Translations under genes and position numbers: made by a program
Source: a virus
Lineage: Duplodnaviria > Caudoviricetes
Reading direction: 5' to 3' (one strand)
DNA length: 64,000 nucleotides
Virus record (IMG/VR): IMGVR_UViG_3300013713_000001
Location: 64,001-128,000 of that record
In this document: piece by piece, positions 18,161 through 29,892 of the stretch
Layout of the letters: each line of letters opens with the position of its first letter
Numbering within the stretch: position 1 is the first letter of the stretch
Notes under the pieces: model-generated
What the model saw: the letters and a program-made list of their open reading frames with translations, nothing else
What the model was told of the DNA's origin: nothing
Databases searched by the model: none

Positions 18161-18589
18161 CTATGGATTACCAAACTGTTCTTCGCTAAAGGTTAGGCGC
18201 CGTCCCGCCCAATTAGCAAATAGGAAATCTGCTTTTAGGACGGCGTACTTATCAAACTCATAGGTCAAGGACATATGGGGGAGATACTCCGGATAAACCG
18301 GTACATAACCTCGTTCTTTCAGACGTTGGTGTTCTTCTACCAGGCCTGGCGAGATCAGGTGAAACACCAGGCCTGTACCCAGGACTTCAACGTTCTGGAT
18401 AGTGCCCTCATAAACCTTGTTAGCGTTTACAGAGCACAGCGGCGCCGAGAGATCTCGTTCGTCATACATCAACGTACAGTGTAACGGGTACTTGGGCATT
18501 GCAAAGCCGGCTTGCACCAACAAGCCTAGGATTTCACTTCTTTCCGGATCCTGGAGGAGGACCTGGACGTAACCTGTATCACTGGCCAT
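18161..18589 (-). CDS. 2H phosphodiesterase, Acb1/T4 gp57B-like (putative anti-CBASS)
   Basis: LHCTLMY and YLPHMSLTY 2H motifs, TGYV N-terminus, L..EH..L..RG segment; size and spacing match T4 57B. Confidence 0.8.
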   Translation of the reverse strand: MASDTGYVQVLLQDPERSEILGLLVQAGFAMPKYPLHCTLMYDERDLSAPLCSVNANKVYEGTIQNVEVLGTGLVFHLISPGLVEEHQRLKERGYVPVYPEYLPHMSLTYEFDKYAVLKADFLFANWAGRRLTFSEEQFGNP

Positions 18590-19512
18590 TCTGGCTCCTG
18601 GCGACCGCGCTTAAAGAGGTTGAGGACCTTGTTCCAATAAAATCCTTTGGACCTCAGCTTCTTGTGGGACGCGGTAAACCGGGAATCGTTGTAGGGGAGG
18701 GTAAACGCAGCAGCCTGTACATGACCGCCACCTCCGAACCGTTCAGCAATAACATTTACCGGATAAGCATCCGAACGCAACGAATAATAACGACTGTCTC
18801 GACCATTTGCATAAACCGCTACTGGGTAACCGTGGTGTTTCAGTGCATCCCCAAGATCGGATGCAAAACAGTAGTTCGCGTTAACGGCAGCAAACGTAAC
18901 ACCATCAATATCCAGCAAGTGAAAGGTCTTAGCAATCTTGGCAACCTCTAGTTCCTGTTTCCGTAAGAGCGCGTCACCGATTTGCTTTACGGTATAGGGA
19001 TCTGTTGCCATCAAGGTGTCAATACTTTCAACAGTCAGCGGGTAACTAAAAGCAGCGGCAGTCCAGCTCTTGGTCAAGGGATTTTTGAACTTCCACAAAT
19101 CCCGATCCTGTACCAACTCAATACCGAGAGGAGGTTTCACAAGCGGGTAGAAGTAATCCCAAGCCATGCCAGCGCCCGAACGCTTCATATCAAAGATAAC
19201 GTTCGTTTCGTATTCACTGCTCGGATCCAAGTGCGTCCGCAGGTCAGCACAGACTCGCTCAGCAGTGTCGTGGTGATCAAGAACCACCAGGTGACACATA
19301 CTTGCCAATTCAACCATTTCAGGAAGGGGGTAGCTGAAGTCCACAACAAAGACATTCTTCCCTTCAAGACCCTCTGGGAGTTTGCTCTTGTACTGGGCGG
19401 AGATAAGTTTCACATTTCCGTCAAAGTACTTCCAAACCACCCAAGCTGCTGCGATGCCGTCCAAGCAGTTTGCGTGGTAAATGCAAACATTCTTGTGCTC
19501 ATGCATCGGCAT
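18526..19512 (-). CDS. DHH/DHHA1 phosphoesterase
   Basis: YHANCLDG, VVDFSY, LDHH, RSGAGMAW, QDRDLW, YSLRS, GGGGHVQAAAF. Confidence 0.9.
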   Translation of the reverse strand: MPMHEHKNVCIYHANCLDGIAAAWVVWKYFDGNVKLISAQYKSKLPEGLEGKNVFVVDFSYPLPEMVELASMCHLVVLDHHDTAERVCADLRTHLDPSSEYETNVIFDMKRSGAGMAWDYFYPLVKPPLGIELVQDRDLWKFKNPLTKSWTAAAFSYPLTVESIDTLMATDPYTVKQIGDALLRKQELEVAKIAKTFHLLDIDGVTFAAVNANYCFASDLGDALKHHGYPVAVYANGRDSRYYSLRSDAYPVNVIAERFGGGGHVQAAAFTLPYNDSRFTASHKKLRSKGFYWNKVLNLFKRGRQEPEWPVIQVTSRSSSRIRKEVKS

Positions 19513-20245
19513 CGTCCTGCTCGCGGTTCTCCGGGGCATCAGAAGCACCAATGATGTCAATGCAACGCCACACACCCCAGGCCTCGCCGTTCTCTTCACG
19601 GAGGCGGTGCGCTTCTTCAAAGGCCAGGGCCTTCGTCTTCAGGCGGGTGGGTGAACGGGTAAAGACGGTGGCTCCGTTCTCAAAGACCTTACCGATGATG
19701 TAACTGCCGAGGGGCTTGTGATACGGCTCACGGAAGTCAGCACGGCGGGCCTGGGTCATCTTCTGGTGGTAGAGGTTGAACCCAAACCAGAGCAGACGGA
19801 TACGGCTGTTGATATAACGGCCATTGGCGTCTTTTTCGAGCTCCATAGGGCTAGCCCCTACATCTGACTCGAAGAGGACGTTTTCGAACTCTTCCTGGAT
19901 GGTAGTTGGTGCTTCGTGGGGGCGACCAGGTGTCGGGAGTACATCAGCCACTACTGCGGGTGCTACTGTATCCAGGGTTTCCGGTTTTTCCGCAATAACC
20001 AGAGGAACCGCAACGATGTACGGATCCGTGTCAGTCGATGGCTGGTAGAGCGCCAGATCACGGGACTCGTCCAGGTTGTCACCAGCCTGTTCGACAAACT
20101 TGTCAACGATCTCACTCAGGGCGCCTTTGACATCAGGACGCTTGAGACCACGGTTATCAGCCAGCTCCCTGGCACGTTGGTTGACCCAGGTGGAATCGAC
20201 AGGGTGCAGGGCCAGCGGAAGGTTTTCAGGAACAGTCACAGGCAA
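19499..20245 (-). CDS. hypothetical multidomain protein
   Basis: AGGAG RBS; GRY..W and A..EA.RL modules. Confidence 0.75.
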   Translation of the reverse strand: MPVTVPENLPLALHPVDSTWVNQRARELADNRGLKRPDVKGALSEIVDKFVEQAGDNLDESRDLALYQPSTDTDPYIVAVPLVIAEKPETLDTVAPAVVADVLPTPGRPHEAPTTIQEEFENVLFESDVGASPMELEKDANGRYINSRIRLLWFGFNLYHQKMTQARRADFREPYHKPLGSYIIGKVFENGATVFTRSPTRLKTKALAFEEAHRLREENGEAWGVWRCIDIIGASDAPENREQDDADA

Positions 20246-20811: not shown

Positions 20812-21303
20812 TTATATCGCCCCTATCATCCGCAAATACTCTGTATCTTGTAATTCTGGTTTAGCGCAGGCATCTGAAGCCAGTTTGTCTGCACGTTCGT
20901 TGCCGAGAACGCCCGAGTGACCCCTCACCCAGTGAAACTTAACCTTGTTCTCTTTCAGCAACTCGTTAAGGACGATGCAGAGGTCCCGGTTCTTGACCGG
21001 TTGCCCCGTGTTGTAAGTTAGCCAGTTGTTCCTGGCCCAACCCCTGATCCACTTCGTCGCGGCTTTGATGGTGTAATCCGAGTCAGTGTAGATATCGACC
21101 TTGATGTTAGGACCGAACTCTTCCAGTGCTGTGATTACTGCCAACATCTCCATTCGATTATTGGTTGTATAATGGTAGCCCTTACTCAACTCGGTCACCG
21201 TATCACCGAGTTGAGCAAAGATGCCATAACCACCAGGACCTGGGTTGCCCTTACAAGCACCATCCGTATAGATTACATAATGGTCTTGCTTGGCTTTGGA
21301 CAT
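20812..21303 (-). CDS. rnhA: ribonuclease HI
   Basis: YTDGACKGNPGPGG, TTNNRMEM, TDSDY, VKNRDL, WVRGHSG..GNERADKLA. Confidence 0.97.
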   Translation of the reverse strand: MSKAKQDHYVIYTDGACKGNPGPGGYGIFAQLGDTVTELSKGYHYTTNNRMEMLAVITALEEFGPNIKVDIYTDSDYTIKAATKWIRGWARNNWLTYNTGQPVKNRDLCIVLNELLKENKVKFHWVRGHSGVLGNERADKLASDACAKPELQDTEYLRMIGAI

Positions 21304-21315
21304 TTAAACCTCGTG

Positions 21316-22614
21316 CTAGAAAGTTGCTCCGTCAATATAGATGGTCTGCTCGTTTTCATTTGCTAGATAATCAAACGCACTTTTATCCGGATAGCTCAGG
21401 TGCGCATTACCCTTTGGGCTCGTGGAGAGCATAAGGTCTTCTCTCTCCTTAGGTGGGTATTTGACCGTTAGCAGTTCATTGTTGATCAACCGTCGAGCGG
21501 TATCCAGCAGGTTGATCATGCTGCAACGGGAGGTAATCGAGTCGACCAGGTAGTCAACAAGGCTCTCTTCGACTGCACTGGGTTCAACATCACCAAAGAA
21601 GGCCTGGCAAGCCTTACGGCGAATCGACCGACGGGAATCAGGGTTACGGAACGACATGGTAAAGAGAACGGTATACTGCTGGTCGAAAACATTGGCGCTT
21701 TCTTTCGGAACGAACAGAGCCACGTTATTCTCGTCGACCCGTACCAGGTGAGCAGGACGTGGCGCGCCGATATTGATAACTGTGAAGTCATAACGGCTCG
21801 TCAAGTAGATGCCCGGGCAGTCTTGACGGAAGTTTTGGGAATTGAACCTAATTCCTTTGAGGGTCACATTACCTGTCAAGAAGAACCCACAGCCGATCAG
21901 TCTGGAATCCTCAATGTCAATCTTCCCCTCTCTGAAGTTACAGTGTCGAAGGTCAGAGTTGTTAACAGTGACGAAACTGTCAGGAACGACCCCGCGAACG
22001 AAACTACAATGCTCGATAAGAGAATCGCAGTAATACCCCGAAGGAAGACTAGTCCCCTGGAAGTTTAGCGTATCCGCATCTACTCCACTCAGCGACAGAC
22101 GACCTTCGGGACGGCGCACCACGCCATAAAAGCCATTGCGCACGATCGACTCGTCCCACGCATTTTCTGTACTGTCAATCCCCATCAAGACTGACCGACC
22201 AGCAAAGTAATCAGACTTGCTATGGGAGTCGATCAGGCAAATAACCACCAGGGGGTCTTTTGTTCCGTACGGAGTATAACTGGAGAGCCCTGACAGATCC
22301 AGAGACGAGCTTTCGTCAGCCAGGATGTAATGGAGGGGTGCACGGAGCCCGTTTCGTTGCTCGATATCGTGCAGGTACCGGTATACCTTTAGAACAGGGT
22401 AAGCTCCCTTAGGTCCTATACCTGGAACGCATCGGATCAACGGAAATCCGTTATGACTCCACCACCCATCAACCAGTTCCGCTTCACCGATAGCGGTTAA
22501 GATCTCACCATTGACCGCAATCACGCCAGGCTGACCAATGATTGGAGTTTCCTCAACAACAGCAACTTCTTTGCTAACAGTCTTTGCTTCAGTCTTCTTC
22601 GTCATCTTTTCCAC
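21316..22614 (-). CDS. beta-solenoid (pentapeptide-like) protein, paralog of 22667..24109
   Basis: Periodic S/N/C-x-x-x-L/F/I region; C-terminal LVDYLVDSITSRCSMINLLD. Confidence 0.75.
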   Translation of the reverse strand: MEKMTKKTEAKTVSKEVAVVEETPIIGQPGVIAVNGEILTAIGEAELVDGWWSHNGFPLIRCVPGIGPKGAYPVLKVYRYLHDIEQRNGLRAPLHYILADESSSLDLSGLSSYTPYGTKDPLVVICLIDSHSKSDYFAGRSVLMGIDSTENAWDESIVRNGFYGVVRRPEGRLSLSGVDADTLNFQGTSLPSGYYCDSLIEHCSFVRGVVPDSFVTVNNSDLRHCNFREGKIDIEDSRLIGCGFFLTGNVTLKGIRFNSQNFRQDCPGIYLTSRYDFTVINIGAPRPAHLVRVDENNVALFVPKESANVFDQQYTVLFTMSFRNPDSRRSIRRKACQAFFGDVEPSAVEESLVDYLVDSITSRCSMINLLDTARRLINNELLTVKYPPKEREDLMLSTSPKGNAHLSYPDKSAFDYLANENEQTIYIDGATF

Positions 22615-22666: not shown

Positions 22667-24109
22667 TTATTCGAAGAACGAGGAACTTTCCCCTTCCGAT
22701 GAGATCCCCATCTCTTCGGCCACGTCCTCAACTTCATCCAAGAGGACGATCATCTTCAATCGAGAAACAACTTGGTCGACCAGGTATTGGAGGATCTGCC
22801 CCTTAACCGTTTCGGTTCCCTGGTGACCTCCGTAACCAGGGAACCCTGGTCGCTCCCATGGCGGGGTATAGCCGAGAGGACCCGGACCCGGTCCTGGGAT
22901 CAGACCAAACGGTTTCAATACCCCCTTACCTTTCTCACCGAGCAATTCCTGGAGCTGCTCCTCGATGACATGCCGAGGTGAATCGATAGGGAGTGGTTTC
23001 TTTTCCGCGGGCAGAGACCATCGATCCGTGGTGAGATACACTTCAGTTGGGGAAGTTCTGATCATCATCAGTGCACGATCGTGCCGGCTCAGGTAGTCGA
23101 GCTGAGTAAAGGCGAAACGGTTAGTGACGTGAATACTTGGAACGCGCCAGTGCTGGCCATTCAACCCACCGACGCCACGGATCAGGATATCCTTCTCCGT
23201 CTCAGCAACAAACTTCTCTGCCGTCAGTTTGCTGACACTAACCTTACCCCCGTTAATCACGCACTGGGTCAGGTAACTGTTGGTTACCTTTACCGGACTG
23301 GGGTTACTTGGCTTCAACCCCCCAACGGTCGACTTGGTGATATGGGAGTTGCTATAGCGACCGCCTGACAGGATCGAGTCGACGACCGAACAGGCCAGCA
23401 GGTAGAGGTTGTCGTATTCCTGGCGTTTGCTGATCCCCGGGCGGTGAGGACCACTAGGACCCCAGCCGTTACTGGCCCCTACATCCCCCGAAACAATCAC
23501 GAGGTGGCTCTTGTTGAGAACGGTGTTCTTCACCGCCACGTTGACCAACGAGCAATCGCCAAGGAAATGGTTATCCATGCTGGCCGCGTTGATCATGATG
23601 AGGTTACCGCCACGAGCCGTGCGGAAGTAGAAGTCATCGCTCAAGACAAACGAGGAACGGTCGTCCATCAGCAAGTGGTATTTGACTCCACTAAAGCTGA
23701 AGATAAACAACGACATCTCAGGGAAGTCAAAATTGGTGGGGTCTTCCCATGGGGCATTAGTGGACTGCGTCCGGGTGTACTCGTTATAGAGCACCTGGTG
23801 GGGTAGCTGGAAGTGCTGGTCTTCGTAAACGTAGACCTCGCCCCCTGGACCAGTGGGTTTCAGCCCGGTGGCCACGGGACCAATGCGAGTCCCTGCAATA
23901 ACGACAGTAGGTCCCTTTCCGGGAAGGAGGGCTTCTGTCTTACCGCCATAGCGTTGAGCTGACTCGATCACCTTTCCCAGGCGACCTCTGGGCTTCATAC
24001 CCAGTTCGTCGAACTGCAGGACGATGTCTTTGGCGATTGCTTGAGCCTCGGCAACCTGCGGCTCCTCTTTTGGTTCCTTGGTGTCCTTTACAACCTTCTT
24101 ATCGGCCAT
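22667..24109 (-). CDS. beta-solenoid protein, paralog of 21316..22614
   Basis: HLLMDDRSS vs YILADESSS; NHFLGDCSL vs DYFAGRSVL; C-terminal LQYLVDQVVSRLKMIVLLD. Confidence 0.75.
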   Translation of the reverse strand: MADKKVVKDTKEPKEEPQVAEAQAIAKDIVLQFDELGMKPRGRLGKVIESAQRYGGKTEALLPGKGPTVVIAGTRIGPVATGLKPTGPGGEVYVYEDQHFQLPHQVLYNEYTRTQSTNAPWEDPTNFDFPEMSLFIFSFSGVKYHLLMDDRSSFVLSDDFYFRTARGGNLIMINAASMDNHFLGDCSLVNVAVKNTVLNKSHLVIVSGDVGASNGWGPSGPHRPGISKRQEYDNLYLLACSVVDSILSGGRYSNSHITKSTVGGLKPSNPSPVKVTNSYLTQCVINGGKVSVSKLTAEKFVAETEKDILIRGVGGLNGQHWRVPSIHVTNRFAFTQLDYLSRHDRALMMIRTSPTEVYLTTDRWSLPAEKKPLPIDSPRHVIEEQLQELLGEKGKGVLKPFGLIPGPGPGPLGYTPPWERPGFPGYGGHQGTETVKGQILQYLVDQVVSRLKMIVLLDEVEDVAEEMGISSEGESSSFFE

Positions 24110-24112
24110 GCC

Positions 24113-26101
24113 TTAGTGCTCCTTGATGTACTTGATGAGGGATTCAATACTCGCATACTTGTTGACGTCCAACGTAGGAATAGAGTACTGGGTTGCTTTT
24201 AACAGTTTGCTCTTGCTAGCACGGTCACTGATCACCAGGTATTTGCAATCGACGGTAAGCTTATCAGAGAGCTCTATACCGCGTTCTGCAAAGTACCCCA
24301 CCAGTTCATCATGGGTCTGATCAAACGAGCCCGTAATCGACACCTTGAAGCCTGTAGTGTCTGCTGGAGGGAGGGTCAGTTCGATTTCTCGAGCCAAGGC
24401 CTCAAAGTTCTCATGGAACGTTGGATTCGCCATCGTGTTCACAACTGCCATGGCAATGCCGTTAGAGATCCCCTTAACCTCGGTCAGGAACCGCACGTTT
24501 GTAAACAGATGCTCGAGCAACGCAATGCGCTCATCCTTGCCAATACTGAAATCGGCAACAAAGTACACATTACTGGCCAGGGCATCGGCAATGCGTTTCG
24601 AGAGGACCACCCCAACATCCGGGAAGCAGAGGGCCTTGATAAAGCGGTCAAGCGTCTGAATACGCGCCCCGTCGATACGTTCTTTCAGATCCGTCGAGAT
24701 AAGGTTCAATGCCCCTGTATTCAGGCTGAACAGATCTGCCGGCTTGGTGAGGTAGCCGCGGTGGACCAGGTCTGCCACTACCACGGGACCCAACCCTTGG
24801 ATGTCAAGACCAAACTTGTCACCCATCAGGATCGTGCGGTGGATCAACTGCGCAGGGCACGCAGAGACGTTGTTACAGACGAGTTCTGCGCTGGTCTTAC
24901 CGATCCTTGTCTCGAGGATAGAAGAACAGCTAGGGCACTCGCCAGGGGCTTCCAGAGGCTGTGCATCTCCCGACTCAAGAATACCGCTGAGTACGGGGGT
25001 GGTTCGGTTGGTACGCGAGATCGAAACAACGTCACCTGCCCCCAAGCCGAGTTCCATGAAGTTCCCGTAGTTATCGAGCGTAACACTCGAGTACAGCACG
25101 CCACCGATTTCAACGGGGGTAAAGATCGCCTTCGGGATCACACGTCCATAACCAGAGGTACTCCACTCGACGTCCTTTAATACGGGAGTACCTTCCGCTG
25201 GGGGGAACATGTACGCCACGCTCCAGCGGGGATGCAGGTTGCTGACCCCAACCTCTTGCTGCAAGGCGAGGCTGTTCAGCTTCACCATAATCCCGTTCGA
25301 AGGGACCAGGTCACTGCGCATGTTTTTCGAGATGTAGCTAGCCGACACCTCTGGCGGGGTATCAAACTTGAACTCTCGCAGCTTTTCTTTCAGTCCCTGG
25401 TACGTGGTGGCCCCGAAAGGCTCACTTGACCAATGTGCAGAGAACTGCAGGGTATTCAGGATACGTTGGTCCAGGTGTTCTGGGTGAGCACGTACCCAGC
25501 CACTCACGGCACTGCGCGGGTCTCTCTTTTTCTCACTCAGGGATTCGTTATAGGTCTCGAAGTCATGGATCCCGATCCAGGCTTCACCACGGATCTCAAC
25601 CGTGTCCAGCATGGTGTCGATCTGGATGGGAATAACACCTTTAACAAACAGGGGATGGGCATGTACAACTTCTTCCCCAACCAATCCAGCACCGCCGGTG
25701 GCCATGCCGGTGAGGAGACCTTTGGTGTAGATCAAGCGGAGACCGATGCCCTCGAGCTTCGCTTCGTAGATGAACTCAGTGCCCTCAGGGAACTTGCCAC
25801 GAAACGCCTCGACTTCTTCTTCGCTGTAGACCTTGCGGACGCTTAGCATCGGCTCCGTGAAGCGGATCACGTTCAGAGGTCCTGCATTGGGGATCTCGAT
25901 CGGGACGGGGTTACTGACGTGGGTTTCGAACTGGTGACCCAGTGCTGGATACTGATCACACAGCCCCCGAAATTCTCGCTCCAGGTTATCGAATTCTTCG
26001 TTCGACAGCTCGGGTTCCTGTTTGACATGATACAGCCAGCTGTGATGCCGAAGGGCTTGATCCAGCAGTTTCATGCGTTCAATAGGGGAATTCTTAGCCA
26101 T
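24113..26101 (-). CDS. NAD+-dependent DNA ligase (LigA) homologue with degenerate active site
   Basis: Ia domain, PMLS, KLEG, EIRGE, PRWSVAY, OB, CPSC..C..C zinc finger, HhH and BRCT all recognisable; catalytic motifs substituted (see findings). Confidence 0.9.
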   Translation of the reverse strand: MAKNSPIERMKLLDQALRHHSWLYHVKQEPELSNEEFDNLEREFRGLCDQYPALGHQFETHVSNPVPIEIPNAGPLNVIRFTEPMLSVRKVYSEEEVEAFRGKFPEGTEFIYEAKLEGIGLRLIYTKGLLTGMATGGAGLVGEEVVHAHPLFVKGVIPIQIDTMLDTVEIRGEAWIGIHDFETYNESLSEKKRDPRSAVSGWVRAHPEHLDQRILNTLQFSAHWSSEPFGATTYQGLKEKLREFKFDTPPEVSASYISKNMRSDLVPSNGIMVKLNSLALQQEVGVSNLHPRWSVAYMFPPAEGTPVLKDVEWSTSGYGRVIPKAIFTPVEIGGVLYSSVTLDNYGNFMELGLGAGDVVSISRTNRTTPVLSGILESGDAQPLEAPGECPSCSSILETRIGKTSAELVCNNVSACPAQLIHRTILMGDKFGLDIQGLGPVVVADLVHRGYLTKPADLFSLNTGALNLISTDLKERIDGARIQTLDRFIKALCFPDVGVVLSKRIADALASNVYFVADFSIGKDERIALLEHLFTNVRFLTEVKGISNGIAMAVVNTMANPTFHENFEALAREIELTLPPADTTGFKVSITGSFDQTHDELVGYFAERGIELSDKLTVDCKYLVISDRASKSKLLKATQYSIPTLDVNKYASIESLIKYIKEH

Positions 26102-26130
26102 TGAAATTTCTCCGTTGCACTATAGGGGTA

Positions 26131-26158: not shown

Positions 26159-26638
26159 TTAGGCGACTTCCTTCACCTTGTTCTTTGCAGCGTGGTAATC
26201 GTTCAAGACACGAATGTCTTGTATCACTTGCTTAACCTCTTCCTCAGAGGCCGACGCAGCGGTCAATTGTGAGAACTCGAACCGCTTCTGGATCAAGAGC
26301 GTGAGGTTGTTGAACACGCGCACTGGGTAGCCCACGTCCGGGTATTGGACGGTGTTGAACTCGAAGTACGGGTTGAACTCACGAACCTCAACGCGTTGGG
26401 AATCTTTGCTAAGGACCACCAGCGTATCCGTCATGGGATGGTTGGTGACCGCATGGGTCTCACAGAGAGCTTCGAAATGGCGCTTTTCCAGCCATACACT
26501 TAAAACCGGGCAAGAGTCACGGAGTCCCTGTAAAACCAACGCCGAAGAACTACCCACCACAAACGCCTCATGGGGAATCTCTTCGGTAGCACAGACGGTT
26601 CCCAAAAGTACTGCAATGTTTTCTGCTTTAAGAGTCAT
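26159..26638 (-). CDS. minimal nucleotidyltransferase-like protein lacking DxD
   Basis: GSSSALVLQGLRDSCPVLSV; LLIQKR; paralog of 26643..27092. Confidence 0.7.
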   Translation of the reverse strand: MTLKAENIAVLLGTVCATEEIPHEAFVVGSSSALVLQGLRDSCPVLSVWLEKRHFEALCETHAVTNHPMTDTLVVLSKDSQRVEVREFNPYFEFNTVQYPDVGYPVRVFNNLTLLIQKRFEFSQLTAASASEEEVKQVIQDIRVLNDYHAAKNKVKEVA

Positions 26639-26642
26639 TTGC

Positions 26643-27092
26643 TTATGCCATTATGCGAGCTACGTGCTGCCGCTCTTTTACTAACTTTTCCAACGCGTCG
26701 ATGTCTGCAAGATCAGCAACCCGTTGACTTTCATCGCGTTCCATTACCTTCGAGAGGTAGCGTTTCTGCGTGAGCAAGGCACTTGGACTGTACGACCAGA
26801 CCCCGCCCACACAAACAACCCCACAGTCGGTATTGAGAACACCCAACTCTACATCTTTATCGAACTTCAGAAGTTTTTCTACGCCGGCAGCAGCGGGAGA
26901 GACCCGGAATTTGTTGCTCCGCTCATACAAGCGAAACACGTTTTCTGGAATACCTGCATCCAGATCATCCGTTGTCTCCCGTACCCCTAAGAGTACCAGT
27001 GCACTCGTCGACGACAACACCACATTCTGGGCTGGTTCGTCGAGTTCGTTCAGCAGTACTCTGTAACGTTCAATAACTCCCGCCTTGTCCAT
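26643..27092 (-). CDS. minimal nucleotidyltransferase (Pol-beta superfamily)-like protein
   Basis: SALVLLGVRETTDDLDAG (DxD), LLTQKR, ADLADI; start MDKAG. Confidence 0.75.
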   Translation of the reverse strand: MDKAGVIERYRVLLNELDEPAQNVVLSSTSALVLLGVRETTDDLDAGIPENVFRLYERSNKFRVSPAAAGVEKLLKFDKDVELGVLNTDCGVVCVGGVWSYSPSALLTQKRYLSKVMERDESQRVADLADIDALEKLVKERQHVARIMA

Positions 27093-27407: not shown

Positions 27408-27430
27408 TGCTAATAATGTAGGTTTGAAAT
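27408..27430 (-). promoter_or_regulatory. early promoter variant
   Basis: TTTCAAACCTACATTATTAG. Confidence 0.7.
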
Positions 27431-29892
27431 TAGTTGATGGTGTTGTTCCGGTTGGGTTCCGCTGGTAGCGTCAAGCCATCGTGTTTCATGGCGACCACAT
27501 TCGGGTTCGAGAACACACCAAAACTAGAAAGATAGTGGCTAACACAGAAGATCTGCCGCGCGTCTTTCTTTTGAGCCAACTCTCGGACAAAGTTGAAGAA
27601 ACGAGTTCGCTTAACCTCGTCGAGGTTGGTCCCCACTTCATCCATAACTAACGGGAAGTACCCATGGTAGATCAACGCAGTAAGACGCACCGCAAAATCA
27701 ATGATACCAGTCTGACCCAAACTGCAATCAGAAATGTCCGGAACCGGCTTTGAGTCACCTACAACAACCGGAAACTTGTAGGTCAAGTCACCGTTAGCTT
27801 TGTTGCAAGGTTTCACATAAAGTGGCGTGTTCCAAACGCTTTGGATCATGGCGTTTGCGTTACCGCAAAAGGTCTTGATAAAGTCAGTCAACAGTTTGCC
27901 GATAAGTCCCTTGTTTGGGCAGAGGCGGTCCATCCATGTTTCGACGATAATGAGGCGCTTACGTAAGCGTTGAACTTCCTCATGAATCGACTCCACAACA
28001 GAGGACAGCGAGCGACTGTTAATGATGGAACGGAGGTAGTCTTCTTTCTCTTCAGTCAAGATGCTGATACGTTCGTCCAATTGTTTACGGAACTTCACGT
28101 ACCCTTCATCGAGCAGACTTTGGAAGATCTCCTCCTTTAGCGCCTCGAGCTTGGCGAGGTCTGCTGCGTAGTTACGGATGATCAAGAGTCGGTTGTTAAA
28201 CGTCTTCAAACGACGGTTGTAAAACCTCAACCGATTCTGATCCACCACAAGTTCACGCTCCCAGTTCTCAACGAACGCTGCAACGTCCAAGACATTGTCG
28301 CGGTTCATAAGTCCTATACGGGTCTCTATGAGATCTTTCTCTTCCAGGAGTGACTCTATACGCCGTGTAGCGTCAAAACGTCCCTTAAAGGCTCTCAGGG
28401 CGTTCAGGATGTTGGATATCTCATTCTTGCCGACGTTGAACTCCTTCACCAGATAGCTCAGGCAAGGAACATCGCTTCTCAGACGACAGAACTGGTGCAA
28501 GGCCACCATTGACTCGTACCAGCTCCGATCATTGTCGAGGCGGTCAGCCAATACATCGCGTTCCTTCTCCATTCGTTGAATTGCTTCACCCCACAGAGTT
28601 ACGTCTTTGCGAAGAGAGAGCACGTCTTTATCGTTTACCCCTACTTTGAAGTTACGCTTGCAGTCTGGACACTCCACCGACTCAGCATTGTCATAATGCT
28701 TAAGCTGGTGGTTGGCTGCAGAGATCTTTCCTTCAAACTCCCGGATGCGGTTGTTGACCTGGTTCAACTGGTTTTCGAGCTGCTTGTACGTCGCCCCGTT
28801 GATCGAGGAGTCGTTTGCATTAACAACACAGTGGAGCTGAGCCACAAACGAATCGTAAACCAGTTCCAGTCCTTTGAAGTCGTAGCCTTCTTCACCAAAC
28901 ACGGGTTGGTCAGCCAGAACAGTGGTATGTTCTTTGATCGACTGTTTCAACTCGTTGATCTCGGTCTCCAATTGGTCCGCTTGGTTCTGGAACAGGAGGG
29001 GATCTTGGATGTATTCCTCAACCCCTTCTAACAGACCGGCGTGTTCACCAATGGTGTGTTGAAGGGACGAGATGTTTTCTTCGTAGTTACTGATCAACCG
29101 CTCGGTGATCTCAATGCCTTCAACAAGTTCGTCTTCGGTGTTGATAAACCCGCTGACCTTGTTTACCGTCAACGCGGTGGAAAGCATCTCGAACTCTTCA
29201 ATCTTGCGACGAAGCAAGGGGTTGATCTTGTACTCTTCCAACGAACCCCGGAGCAGCAGGGACTTACGCAGATCTTCATCAATGAACTTGATACGGTTCT
29301 CAAGTTCTTCAACCCCACATTCGGTAATGCGTTTCAGCTTTTCGCTTTCGTCCGCATAACGAGAGACCTGGTTCTTTAACACCGCTTTGAGTTCGTTACG
29401 CTCAGTTTTCAAGCGGTTGAATACATTCATCGCCATGCTCGTATCGTTGGGATAGAGCCACAGCAAGATCTCTTTACGTCGGGTAGGGGTCAGGTTGCTA
29501 AAGAGGTCATACACCTTTAGCCCTGACAGGAACCGTGCACGAGGACGGTCCAGTTTAAAGTGGGTCCAGCACAGCTCTTTCTGAGCCATAAAGGTCCCGC
29601 CTTTGTTTAGTTCTTCACCGTTCAGTTTAAACGAATGACCATCGGCTACGCCGGTACGTGAATCGAAGATGTAGTGCTTACCTTCGATCTTCCACTCACC
29701 GTATTTACGGCCGCCGGTATCAAAATCAGCGCTTTCGGGTGGGAGTTGGTTAACCTCTTTAAGAATACTGGTTTTACCTACACCGTTCTGAGCCACGAAC
29801 AAGTTGACCATGTGCGCAAGGTCCAGCTCAACATAGGTAATACCGTTTTTCTGCAGCGGTATATAGTTTTCGAGGATCAGTTTAATCAGCAT
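27430..29892 (-). CDS. sbcC: SbcC/Rad50-like SMC ATPase (phiKZ gp165-like)
   Basis: Walker A QNGVGKTS, coiled coils, CPDC zinc hook, signature SLGQ, Walker B LVMDE, VSH. Confidence 0.9.
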   Translation of the reverse strand: MLIKLILENYIPLQKNGITYVELDLAHMVNLFVAQNGVGKTSILKEVNQLPPESADFDTGGRKYGEWKIEGKHYIFDSRTGVADGHSFKLNGEELNKGGTFMAQKELCWTHFKLDRPRARFLSGLKVYDLFSNLTPTRRKEILLWLYPNDTSMAMNVFNRLKTERNELKAVLKNQVSRYADESEKLKRITECGVEELENRIKFIDEDLRKSLLLRGSLEEYKINPLLRRKIEEFEMLSTALTVNKVSGFINTEDELVEGIEITERLISNYEENISSLQHTIGEHAGLLEGVEEYIQDPLLFQNQADQLETEINELKQSIKEHTTVLADQPVFGEEGYDFKGLELVYDSFVAQLHCVVNANDSSINGATYKQLENQLNQVNNRIREFEGKISAANHQLKHYDNAESVECPDCKRNFKVGVNDKDVLSLRKDVTLWGEAIQRMEKERDVLADRLDNDRSWYESMVALHQFCRLRSDVPCLSYLVKEFNVGKNEISNILNALRAFKGRFDATRRIESLLEEKDLIETRIGLMNRDNVLDVAAFVENWERELVVDQNRLRFYNRRLKTFNNRLLIIRNYAADLAKLEALKEEIFQSLLDEGYVKFRKQLDERISILTEEKEDYLRSIINSRSLSSVVESIHEEVQRLRKRLIIVETWMDRLCPNKGLIGKLLTDFIKTFCGNANAMIQSVWNTPLYVKPCNKANGDLTYKFPVVVGDSKPVPDISDCSLGQTGIIDFAVRLTALIYHGYFPLVMDEVGTNLDEVKRTRFFNFVRELAQKKDARQIFCVSHYLSSFGVFSNPNVVAMKHDGLTLPAEPNRNNTIN

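Follow-up and report, generated by a model that had tools for sequence, protein, structure and literature searches.

An NAD+-dependent DNA ligase is present in about 32% of jumbo phages (PMC9503650), and among those related to phiKZ the enzyme is optional: it is found in EL, 201phi2-1, PhiPA3 and Goslar, and neither an NAD+- nor an ATP-dependent DNA ligase is detected in the genomes of phiKZ (L051) and SPN3US (L054). The phage nucleus retains DNA-processing proteins encoded by the phage as well as by its host (PMC12908238), and it is there that the ligase of PhiPA3 is located (PMC10245766). The chemistry involves a single catalytic metal held via residues of motifs I, III and IV, with the lysine of motif V in contact with the AMP phosphate (PMC7470946), while D117 is listed as essential (PMC5052709). 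Pieces of the enzyme also occur alone, as in the solo Nlig-Ia proteins of 81 phages, an NAD+-binding module proposed to work without ligation, as a sensor (PMC9503650). A limited search of the literature found no described dead phage ligase. We discuss here a gene of an EL-like uncultured jumbo phage which, with a probability of roughly 0.65, we understand as coding for a ligase that is catalytically dead and kept for some non-catalytic function, variants that bind NAD+ or clamp DNA included.

The gene lies in a stretch of 64,000 nucleotides, the window, taken from a virus record of 229,109 bp (Duplodnaviria, Caudoviricetes), and it is known from this single genome and one sample. Its reading frame runs uninterrupted from 26101 down to 24113; a preliminary description of the window had announced an intact frame of 662 residues, and it is indeed unbroken, preceded by a ribosome-binding site and ordinary in its codon usage (CAI rank 105 of 181). 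The product, called the pseudo-ligase in what follows, is laid out thus:

24113 to 26101, minus strand: pseudo-ligase reading frame, 662 aa, orthologue of the phage EL gp122 NAD+ DNA ligase (phrog_3869, E 3e-127)
26110 to 26113, minus strand: ribosome-binding site GGAG, 8 nt ahead of the ATG
25877 to 26101, minus strand: domain Ia (NMN pocket); equivalents of Y22, H23 and D36 kept, D32 to N ancestral, Y35 to F; constraint retained
25193 to 25876, minus strand: nucleotidyltransferase (NTase) domain; equivalents of K115, E113, E173, K290, R200, R208 and S81 kept, metal and phosphate residues lost
24947 to 25192, minus strand: OB domain; relaxed more than any other (neutral-equivalent 0.11 substitutions per nucleotide), basic K331, R339 and R370 lost
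24842 to 24946, minus strand: Cys4 zinc finger; all four cysteines kept (389, 392, 409, 415)
24368 to 24841, minus strand: HhH region, shortened across the whole clade; equivalents of R446, G455 and G521 kept
24116 to 24367, minus strand: BRCT region, by alignment and model, with no Pfam match in the pseudo-ligase; R614 equivalent changed to His

Pfam profiles match domain Ia (under the cut-off), the adenylation domain and the OB domain. The protein aligns over its full length with E. coli LigA, Cys4, HhH and BRCT regions included (27% identity, E 7e-51), and its AlphaFold model (mean pLDDT 82) has LigA structures as top fold matches. The six domains that the preliminary description had recognized by eye are therefore present in the order of LigA, Ia - NTase - OB - Cys4 Zn - HhH - BRCT, those of HhH and BRCT type being placed by alignment and model.

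The top cultured match is the NAD-dependent ligase gp122 of Pseudomonas phage EL (YP_418155.1, 41%), followed by those of RisingSun, FishSpeaker, Aphrodite1, AH04 and Miami, and 25 uncultured relatives, 55-61% identical to the pseudo-ligase, have complete catalytic motifs. In the tree the pseudo-ligase groups with these 25 closest relatives (support 100/100) and with EL gp122 (100/98), at the tip of a long terminal branch (0.52). It resembles the EL gp122-type ligases in length (662 as against 650-674 aa, with few small indels), in domain order, in the shortened HhH region, in the motif variants of the clade and in its position between two conserved genes:

27430 to 29892, minus strand: SbcC-like ATPase, the ancestral upstream neighbour, motifs intact
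20812 to 21303, minus strand: RNase HI, the ancestral downstream neighbour, catalytic motifs intact

The same placement is seen in EL, in most of the cultured relatives examined and in close uncultured relatives. The proximity of SbcC and RNase H had been read as a hint that the protein might be a repair scaffold; being ancestral synteny, shared with intact ligases, it gives no evidence for a new role. The divergence from these relatives lies elsewhere, as all of them keep D117, R136, D285, K314 and a hydrophobic OB wedge, which the pseudo-ligase does not. By descent, then, it is a syntenic orthologue of EL gp122, and, failing as it does by its sequence in four defining catalytic features, it is not to be filed as an active LigA.

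Several features of the neighbourhood deserve mention in their own right. Directly upstream of the pseudo-ligase, tandem phrog_12854 paralogues occupy window positions 26159-26638 and 26643-27092 (minus strand); they are paired in EL and in close relatives too, and the 149-aa paralogue is modestly accelerated in the pseudo-ligase lineage (z=2.5). Between the pseudo-ligase and RNase H stand two fast-evolving genes with no Pfam match (window 21316-22614 and 22667-24109, minus strand), 33-41% identical to those of close relatives when SbcC is at 76-86%; EL has one gene there.

The changes that matter were placed in an alignment of 279 sequences, the pseudo-ligase and 278 homologues, one partial sequence being gapped at D117 and R136. 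Residues are numbered here as in E. coli, those of the pseudo-ligase being given where they differ:

25751 to 25753, minus strand: motif I Asp117 to Glu, codon GAG
25694 to 25696, minus strand: Arg136 to Gly, codon GGC
25295 to 25297, minus strand: motif IV Asp285 to Asn (residue 269), codon AAC
25208 to 25210, minus strand: motif V Lys314 to Met (residue 298), codon ATG
24998 to 25012, minus strand: nick-wedge loop of the OB domain (residues 364-368, E. coli 380-384), carrying N364T, D366R, V367T and I368T

R136, D285, K314, V383 and I384 are reportedly essential in E. coli LigA, according to mutagenesis from the Shuman laboratory, their importance being supported by invariance and by a review (PMC7470946); we take R136 and K314 to contact the cofactor phosphates, and V383/I384 to be the minor-groove nick wedge of the OB domain. 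At D117 all 277 other sequences that cover the site have aspartate, so that the KxDG of motif I, its K115 kept, is broken in the pseudo-ligase only; at R136 the other homologues have arginine (275) or lysine (2), and D285 and K314 are invariant in the 278 others. The four substitutions first noticed by eye, visible as KLEG, TGGAG, NGIMVK and AYMFP, are therefore real and private to this lineage, each of them being within reach of one base change. To these is added the wedge: N364T, D366R, V367T and I368T are lineage-specific among EL-like phage homologues, which in E. coli numbering turns V383/I384 into T/T and D382 into R. The preliminary description, which had counted the RAGDVIP motif as altered, was right on these changes and misled on A380 to N, a trait of the 25 closest relatives. 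No sister sharing the losses turned up among homologues, shorter homologues, viral and metagenome contigs, 50%-cluster representatives or exact clusters. The partial relative L018 keeps D285 and K314, and the short match P0271 is a split copy of the relative P0008 with its motifs intact. In a relative near-identical to P0008 (L058:239-2247) the ligase is split into ORFs of 311 and 333 aa, the frame being lost right after motif V; its catalytic motifs are intact, and the split may reflect either a fault of assembly or a rare mutant.

Not everything that looks unusual is a loss. GRTG replaced by SGYG, N198 by D (in NPRN), the LDNY form of TLHN and A380 by N are common to the 25 closest relatives, whose catalytic motifs are complete; D32 to N, part of the NEEFD variant, is present in most of them and ancestral in the clade. 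Y35 to F occurs in 39 other homologues of the alignment and N201 to S in 13, while Y225 to H is a natural variant among homologues. About half of the motif changes initially listed as damage are thus traits of the clade, and the core of the claim stands.

Much is also kept: K115, G118, E113, the motif III glutamate E173, K290, R200, R208, S81, D36 and the four zinc cysteines, the retention of the lysine that is normally adenylated and of the motif III glutamate having been correctly seen at the outset. The pseudo-ligase therefore shares with E. coli LigA (PDB 2OWO, 5TT5) its full-length sequence and fold, K115, E113, E173, K290 and the Cys4 cluster, whereas the catalytic-metal carboxylates, the phosphate-binding Arg and Lys and the V383/I384 wedge of LigA are all replaced. 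From what is known of LigA enzymology, a protein deprived of D117, D285, R136 and K314 should be able neither to adenylate K115 nor to seal nicks. It might be argued that we are dealing with a remodelled or weak ligase that is still active: K115, E173 and K290 persist, D117E is conservative, this is the only ligase gene found in the genome, and the clade tolerates non-canonical motifs, such as R333 to G. Yet not one of the 278 other homologues lacks any of the four functional groups, and the sole catalytic metal is held by the carboxylates of motifs I, III and IV, with the motif V lysine positioning the AMP phosphate (PMC7470946) and D117 listed as essential (PMC5052709); residual activity is accordingly very improbable.

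The absence of another enzyme is documented over the whole 229-kb genome, where profiles PF01653, PF01068, PF09414 and PF22745 detect no second DNA or RNA ligase beside the pseudo-ligase, a search that the preliminary description had suggested for a canonical ligase; profile PF14743 is uninformative here, its controls having given no match. A close relative lacks 13 genes that are present here; nine of these were scanned, yielding only unknowns besides an HNH nuclease and a DHH phosphoesterase, and nothing ligase-like. A search for the NAD+ salvage gene PF04095 gave no match. A DNA polymerase of the phiKZ gp50 type is present, and a query with phiKZ gp54 (chimallin, ChmA) found no match in this genome nor in EL, this search being too insensitive. 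The host LigA would presumably now seal nicks for this phage.

Could such losses be an accident of sequencing or assembly? The gene comes from one sample, but two assemblies, the second being Logan contig SRR1749106_182 (possibly of the same sample), are identical across 7,989 bp at the locus, and the neighbouring enzymes keep their catalytic motifs. Hypermutation of the whole genome was considered and rejected, private changes over 181 genes numbering 3187 here as against 3334 in a relative, with no general rate excess; the ligase, at z=2.25, ranks seventh highest. An artefact is thus extremely improbable, and we hold that the pseudo-ligase is real and specific to its lineage.

The pattern of the losses is informative. 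Among 26 near-universal columns the pseudo-ligase breaks four, all of them polar active-site positions: of the universal positions of that type 4 out of 9 are broken, and of the 17 structural ones none (Fisher p=0.008). Columns invariant in the clade are broken at 13 of 73 sites, as against 0-5 in 18 other EL-like lineages. Under a codon branch model omega is 0.096 on the pseudo-ligase branch and 0.14 in the background, and omega=1 is rejected (LRT 134), synonymous sites on that branch being near saturation (1.4-2 substitutions per nucleotide), so that the whole-branch value mostly reflects the time before the loss. A neutral tail was therefore fitted at the end of the branch. When one tail is imposed on all sites it measures 0.038 substitutions per nucleotide and improves the fit (LRT 8.7). 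For 21 functional sites, retained ones included, chosen from knowledge of E. coli LigA though compiled after the alignment had been viewed, release amounts to 0.18 (CI 0.066-0.30), and for 103 other conserved sites it is 0 (0-0.017), a difference with p=2e-4; a wider, partly post-hoc functional list gives 0.35 as against 0 elsewhere. On four control branches release is 0 for both site sets.

These figures bear on the simplest alternative, that of a young pseudogene under plain neutral decay, stop-free by luck. Each key change costs one base change, the uniform tail does improve the fit, and at 0.038 substitutions per nucleotide 10% of ORFs would still be free of stops; at 0.07-0.15 the chance for an unselected ORF falls to 2%-0.05%, before indels are counted. 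However, functional and other conserved sites need separate release depths (LRT 13.9-29.9), and for the 103 conserved non-catalytic sites the upper limit is 0.017, which largely refutes this view and leaves it scarcely credible; plain decay, like artefact, is unlikely. The preliminary description, which took many catalytic losses and no frameshift as a sign of selection, had named as evidence of simple decay the combination of canonical orthologues with neutral dN/dS or frameshifts: the orthologues are canonical, but omega is about 0.10 and no frameshift is seen. With release confined to catalytic and nick-contact sites, its view that selection maintains the gene is supported, and the gene has probably been kept by selection. 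What we observe, in one lineage and with synonymous sites near saturation, is what is asked of a pseudoenzyme, that is, catalytic losses within a sequence that otherwise appears to be under purifying selection. As far as the substitutions tell, the catalytic chemistry was set free long enough ago to leave a measurable trace, and the fold was not.

A similar pattern may nevertheless arise with no function at all, from selection against misfolding or for translational coupling. The pseudo-ligase might be a functionless but expressed relic, the ligase being dispensable, with selection removing only what would cause misfolding or damage to downstream translation, a step towards the ligase-less condition of phiKZ. 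The same split is expected in that case, with a released surface chemistry and a kept core, and conserved basic (5 of 23) and acidic (4 of 20) residues do erode in the pseudo-ligase when hydrophobic ones (6 of 166) do not. The downstream gene starts 3 nt past the stop, its AAGGAG Shine-Dalgarno-like sequence lying within the last codons of the pseudo-ligase; phiKZ and SPN3US manage with no detectable ligase, and no second carrier of the losses was found. Against it stand the full length with so few small indels, although in-frame deletions would be tolerable for a relic, the normal codon usage, and the lack of significant relaxation in domain Ia, the zinc finger, HhH and BRCT. We regard a relic as unlikely, if far from negligible.

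That Ia, zinc finger, HhH and BRCT have stayed constrained, OB having relaxed more than any other domain, agrees with a role in structure or partner binding that goes back to an active ancestor. Under the reading that we prefer, an ancestral phage NAD+ DNA ligase gene would have come, in one lineage, to code for a catalytically dead protein that is preserved at full length and in its fold for some use other than catalysis, the host LigA taking over sealing. The protein would offer the surfaces of these four domains as a platform for partners within the replication and repair apparatus of the phage, a role that the ancestral ligase may already have filled alongside catalysis. There is a precedent in the family, where a catalytic-dead mutant of RNase H still supports replication (PMC13648698). 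Among the jobs that can be proposed, that of a partner-binding platform seems to us the likeliest, and we put it forward tentatively.

A special case of the preferred reading would be a protein that binds, but does not consume, NAD+ or a signal derived from it, a sensor or sponge directed against NAD+-depleting defences. The pocket is indeed largely there, with the equivalents of K115, E113, E173, K290, S81, R200, R208, Y22, H23 and D36, Y225H and Y35F being natural variants. Release at the adenosine- and NMN-pocket sites is not significant (0.03 and 0.07 substitutions per nucleotide), with intervals that include 0 and reach as far as 0.24-0.42 and a grouping of sites made post hoc. Solo Nlig-Ia proteins and the dead Ia+NTase paralogues of 201phi2-1 and Phabio point the same way, and an engineered NAD+ sensor was built on a point-mutated E. 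faecalis ligase (PMC6747460). Yet R136 and K314, which contact the cofactor phosphates (for motif V, PMC7470946), are lost, the kept residues are structural as well, the retention of HhH and BRCT is left unexplained, and the Acb1 gene close by goes back to the ancestor of the clade. This role is quite unlikely. Apart from these arguments, the Acb1 homologue (anti-CBASS; PF23474, E 7e-11) is found at window 18161-18589 (minus strand), in a position conserved clade-wide, and bears an 'RNA ligase' label in EL.

The other special case, a clamp on nicks or ends, or a decoy blocking host LigA or nick sensors, was among the ideas of the preliminary description and now fares worse. The OB, Zn and HhH architecture is kept, with the equivalents of R446, G455, G521, R200 and R208, and R320 remains; but a nick-specific clamp is disfavoured because the residues that contact DNA are eroding. 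Indeed, the wedge loop (V383/I384) is the most released set of sites (0.86 substitutions per nucleotide) within the most relaxed domain, 12 of 52 clade-conserved basic residues are gone, and the NTase domain counts 24 basic residues, as against 28-33 in relatives. Blocking nicks would, besides, harm a phage that has no active ligase. A clamp or decoy is consequently improbable.

Returning to the preferred reading, we probably have before us an enzyme in the course of becoming a protein without enzymatic activity. A more specific version is conceivable though doubtful: the sole ligase would have become a scaffold, or a binder of NAD+ or adenylate that does not consume its ligand, with a definable role in replication or in counter-defence, and the genome would show this conversion at its first steps. 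If true, it would mean that the NAD+ ligases of phages have a second, non-catalytic function which persists once ligation is lost. The genome stands between the ligase-bearing and ligase-less states of the phiKZ-related jumbo phages, and a protein with its chemistry lost and its fold kept, next to 25 intact close relatives, makes a matched pair for comparison. Such a pair lends itself to two questions: do these phages rely on the LigA of their host, and does their own ligase do a second job that is not catalytic?

Other dead ligases exist under the same label. 201phi2-1 gp332 (L059:2608-3534), which has a 72% match in phage Viktualia, and Phabio gp331 (L061:2453-3451) are dead Ia+NTase paralogues of LigA, 308-332 aa long, each directly upstream of an intact ligase; both have lost motif I, R136 and the residues of motifs IV and V, and both bear the annotation 'NAD-dependent DNA ligase'. 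Like the pseudo-ligase they derive from LigA in phiKZ-related jumbo phages and have lost catalytic motifs. Unlike it they are truncated and far more degenerate, the lysine of motif I being unrecognizable, whereas the pseudo-ligase is full-length, the sole copy, in ancestral position and at an early stage, with no shared descent with those duplicates. Solo Nlig-Ia proteins, also ligase-derived, are single small domains, whereas the pseudo-ligase keeps all six, its NAD+ binding being only putative. The annotation 'NAD-dependent DNA ligase' of jumbo phages conceals dead copies, namely the pseudo-ligase, 201phi2-1 gp332 and Phabio gp331.

A few further observations concern other genes. The most accelerated gene of the genome with respect to its close relative (z=3.25) is not the ligase: it codes for a 465-aa phrog_27616 protein (L050:67-1464, that is G000 138167-139564, outside the window). 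A DHH/DHHA1 phosphoesterase at window 18526-19620 (minus strand) is shared with EL and L012 and absent in most close relatives. Finally, the SbcC-like gene of one relative (L020:5143-8661) codes for 1172 aa instead of 820 and has a LAGLIDADG_3 match, which suggests an intein with a homing endonuclease.
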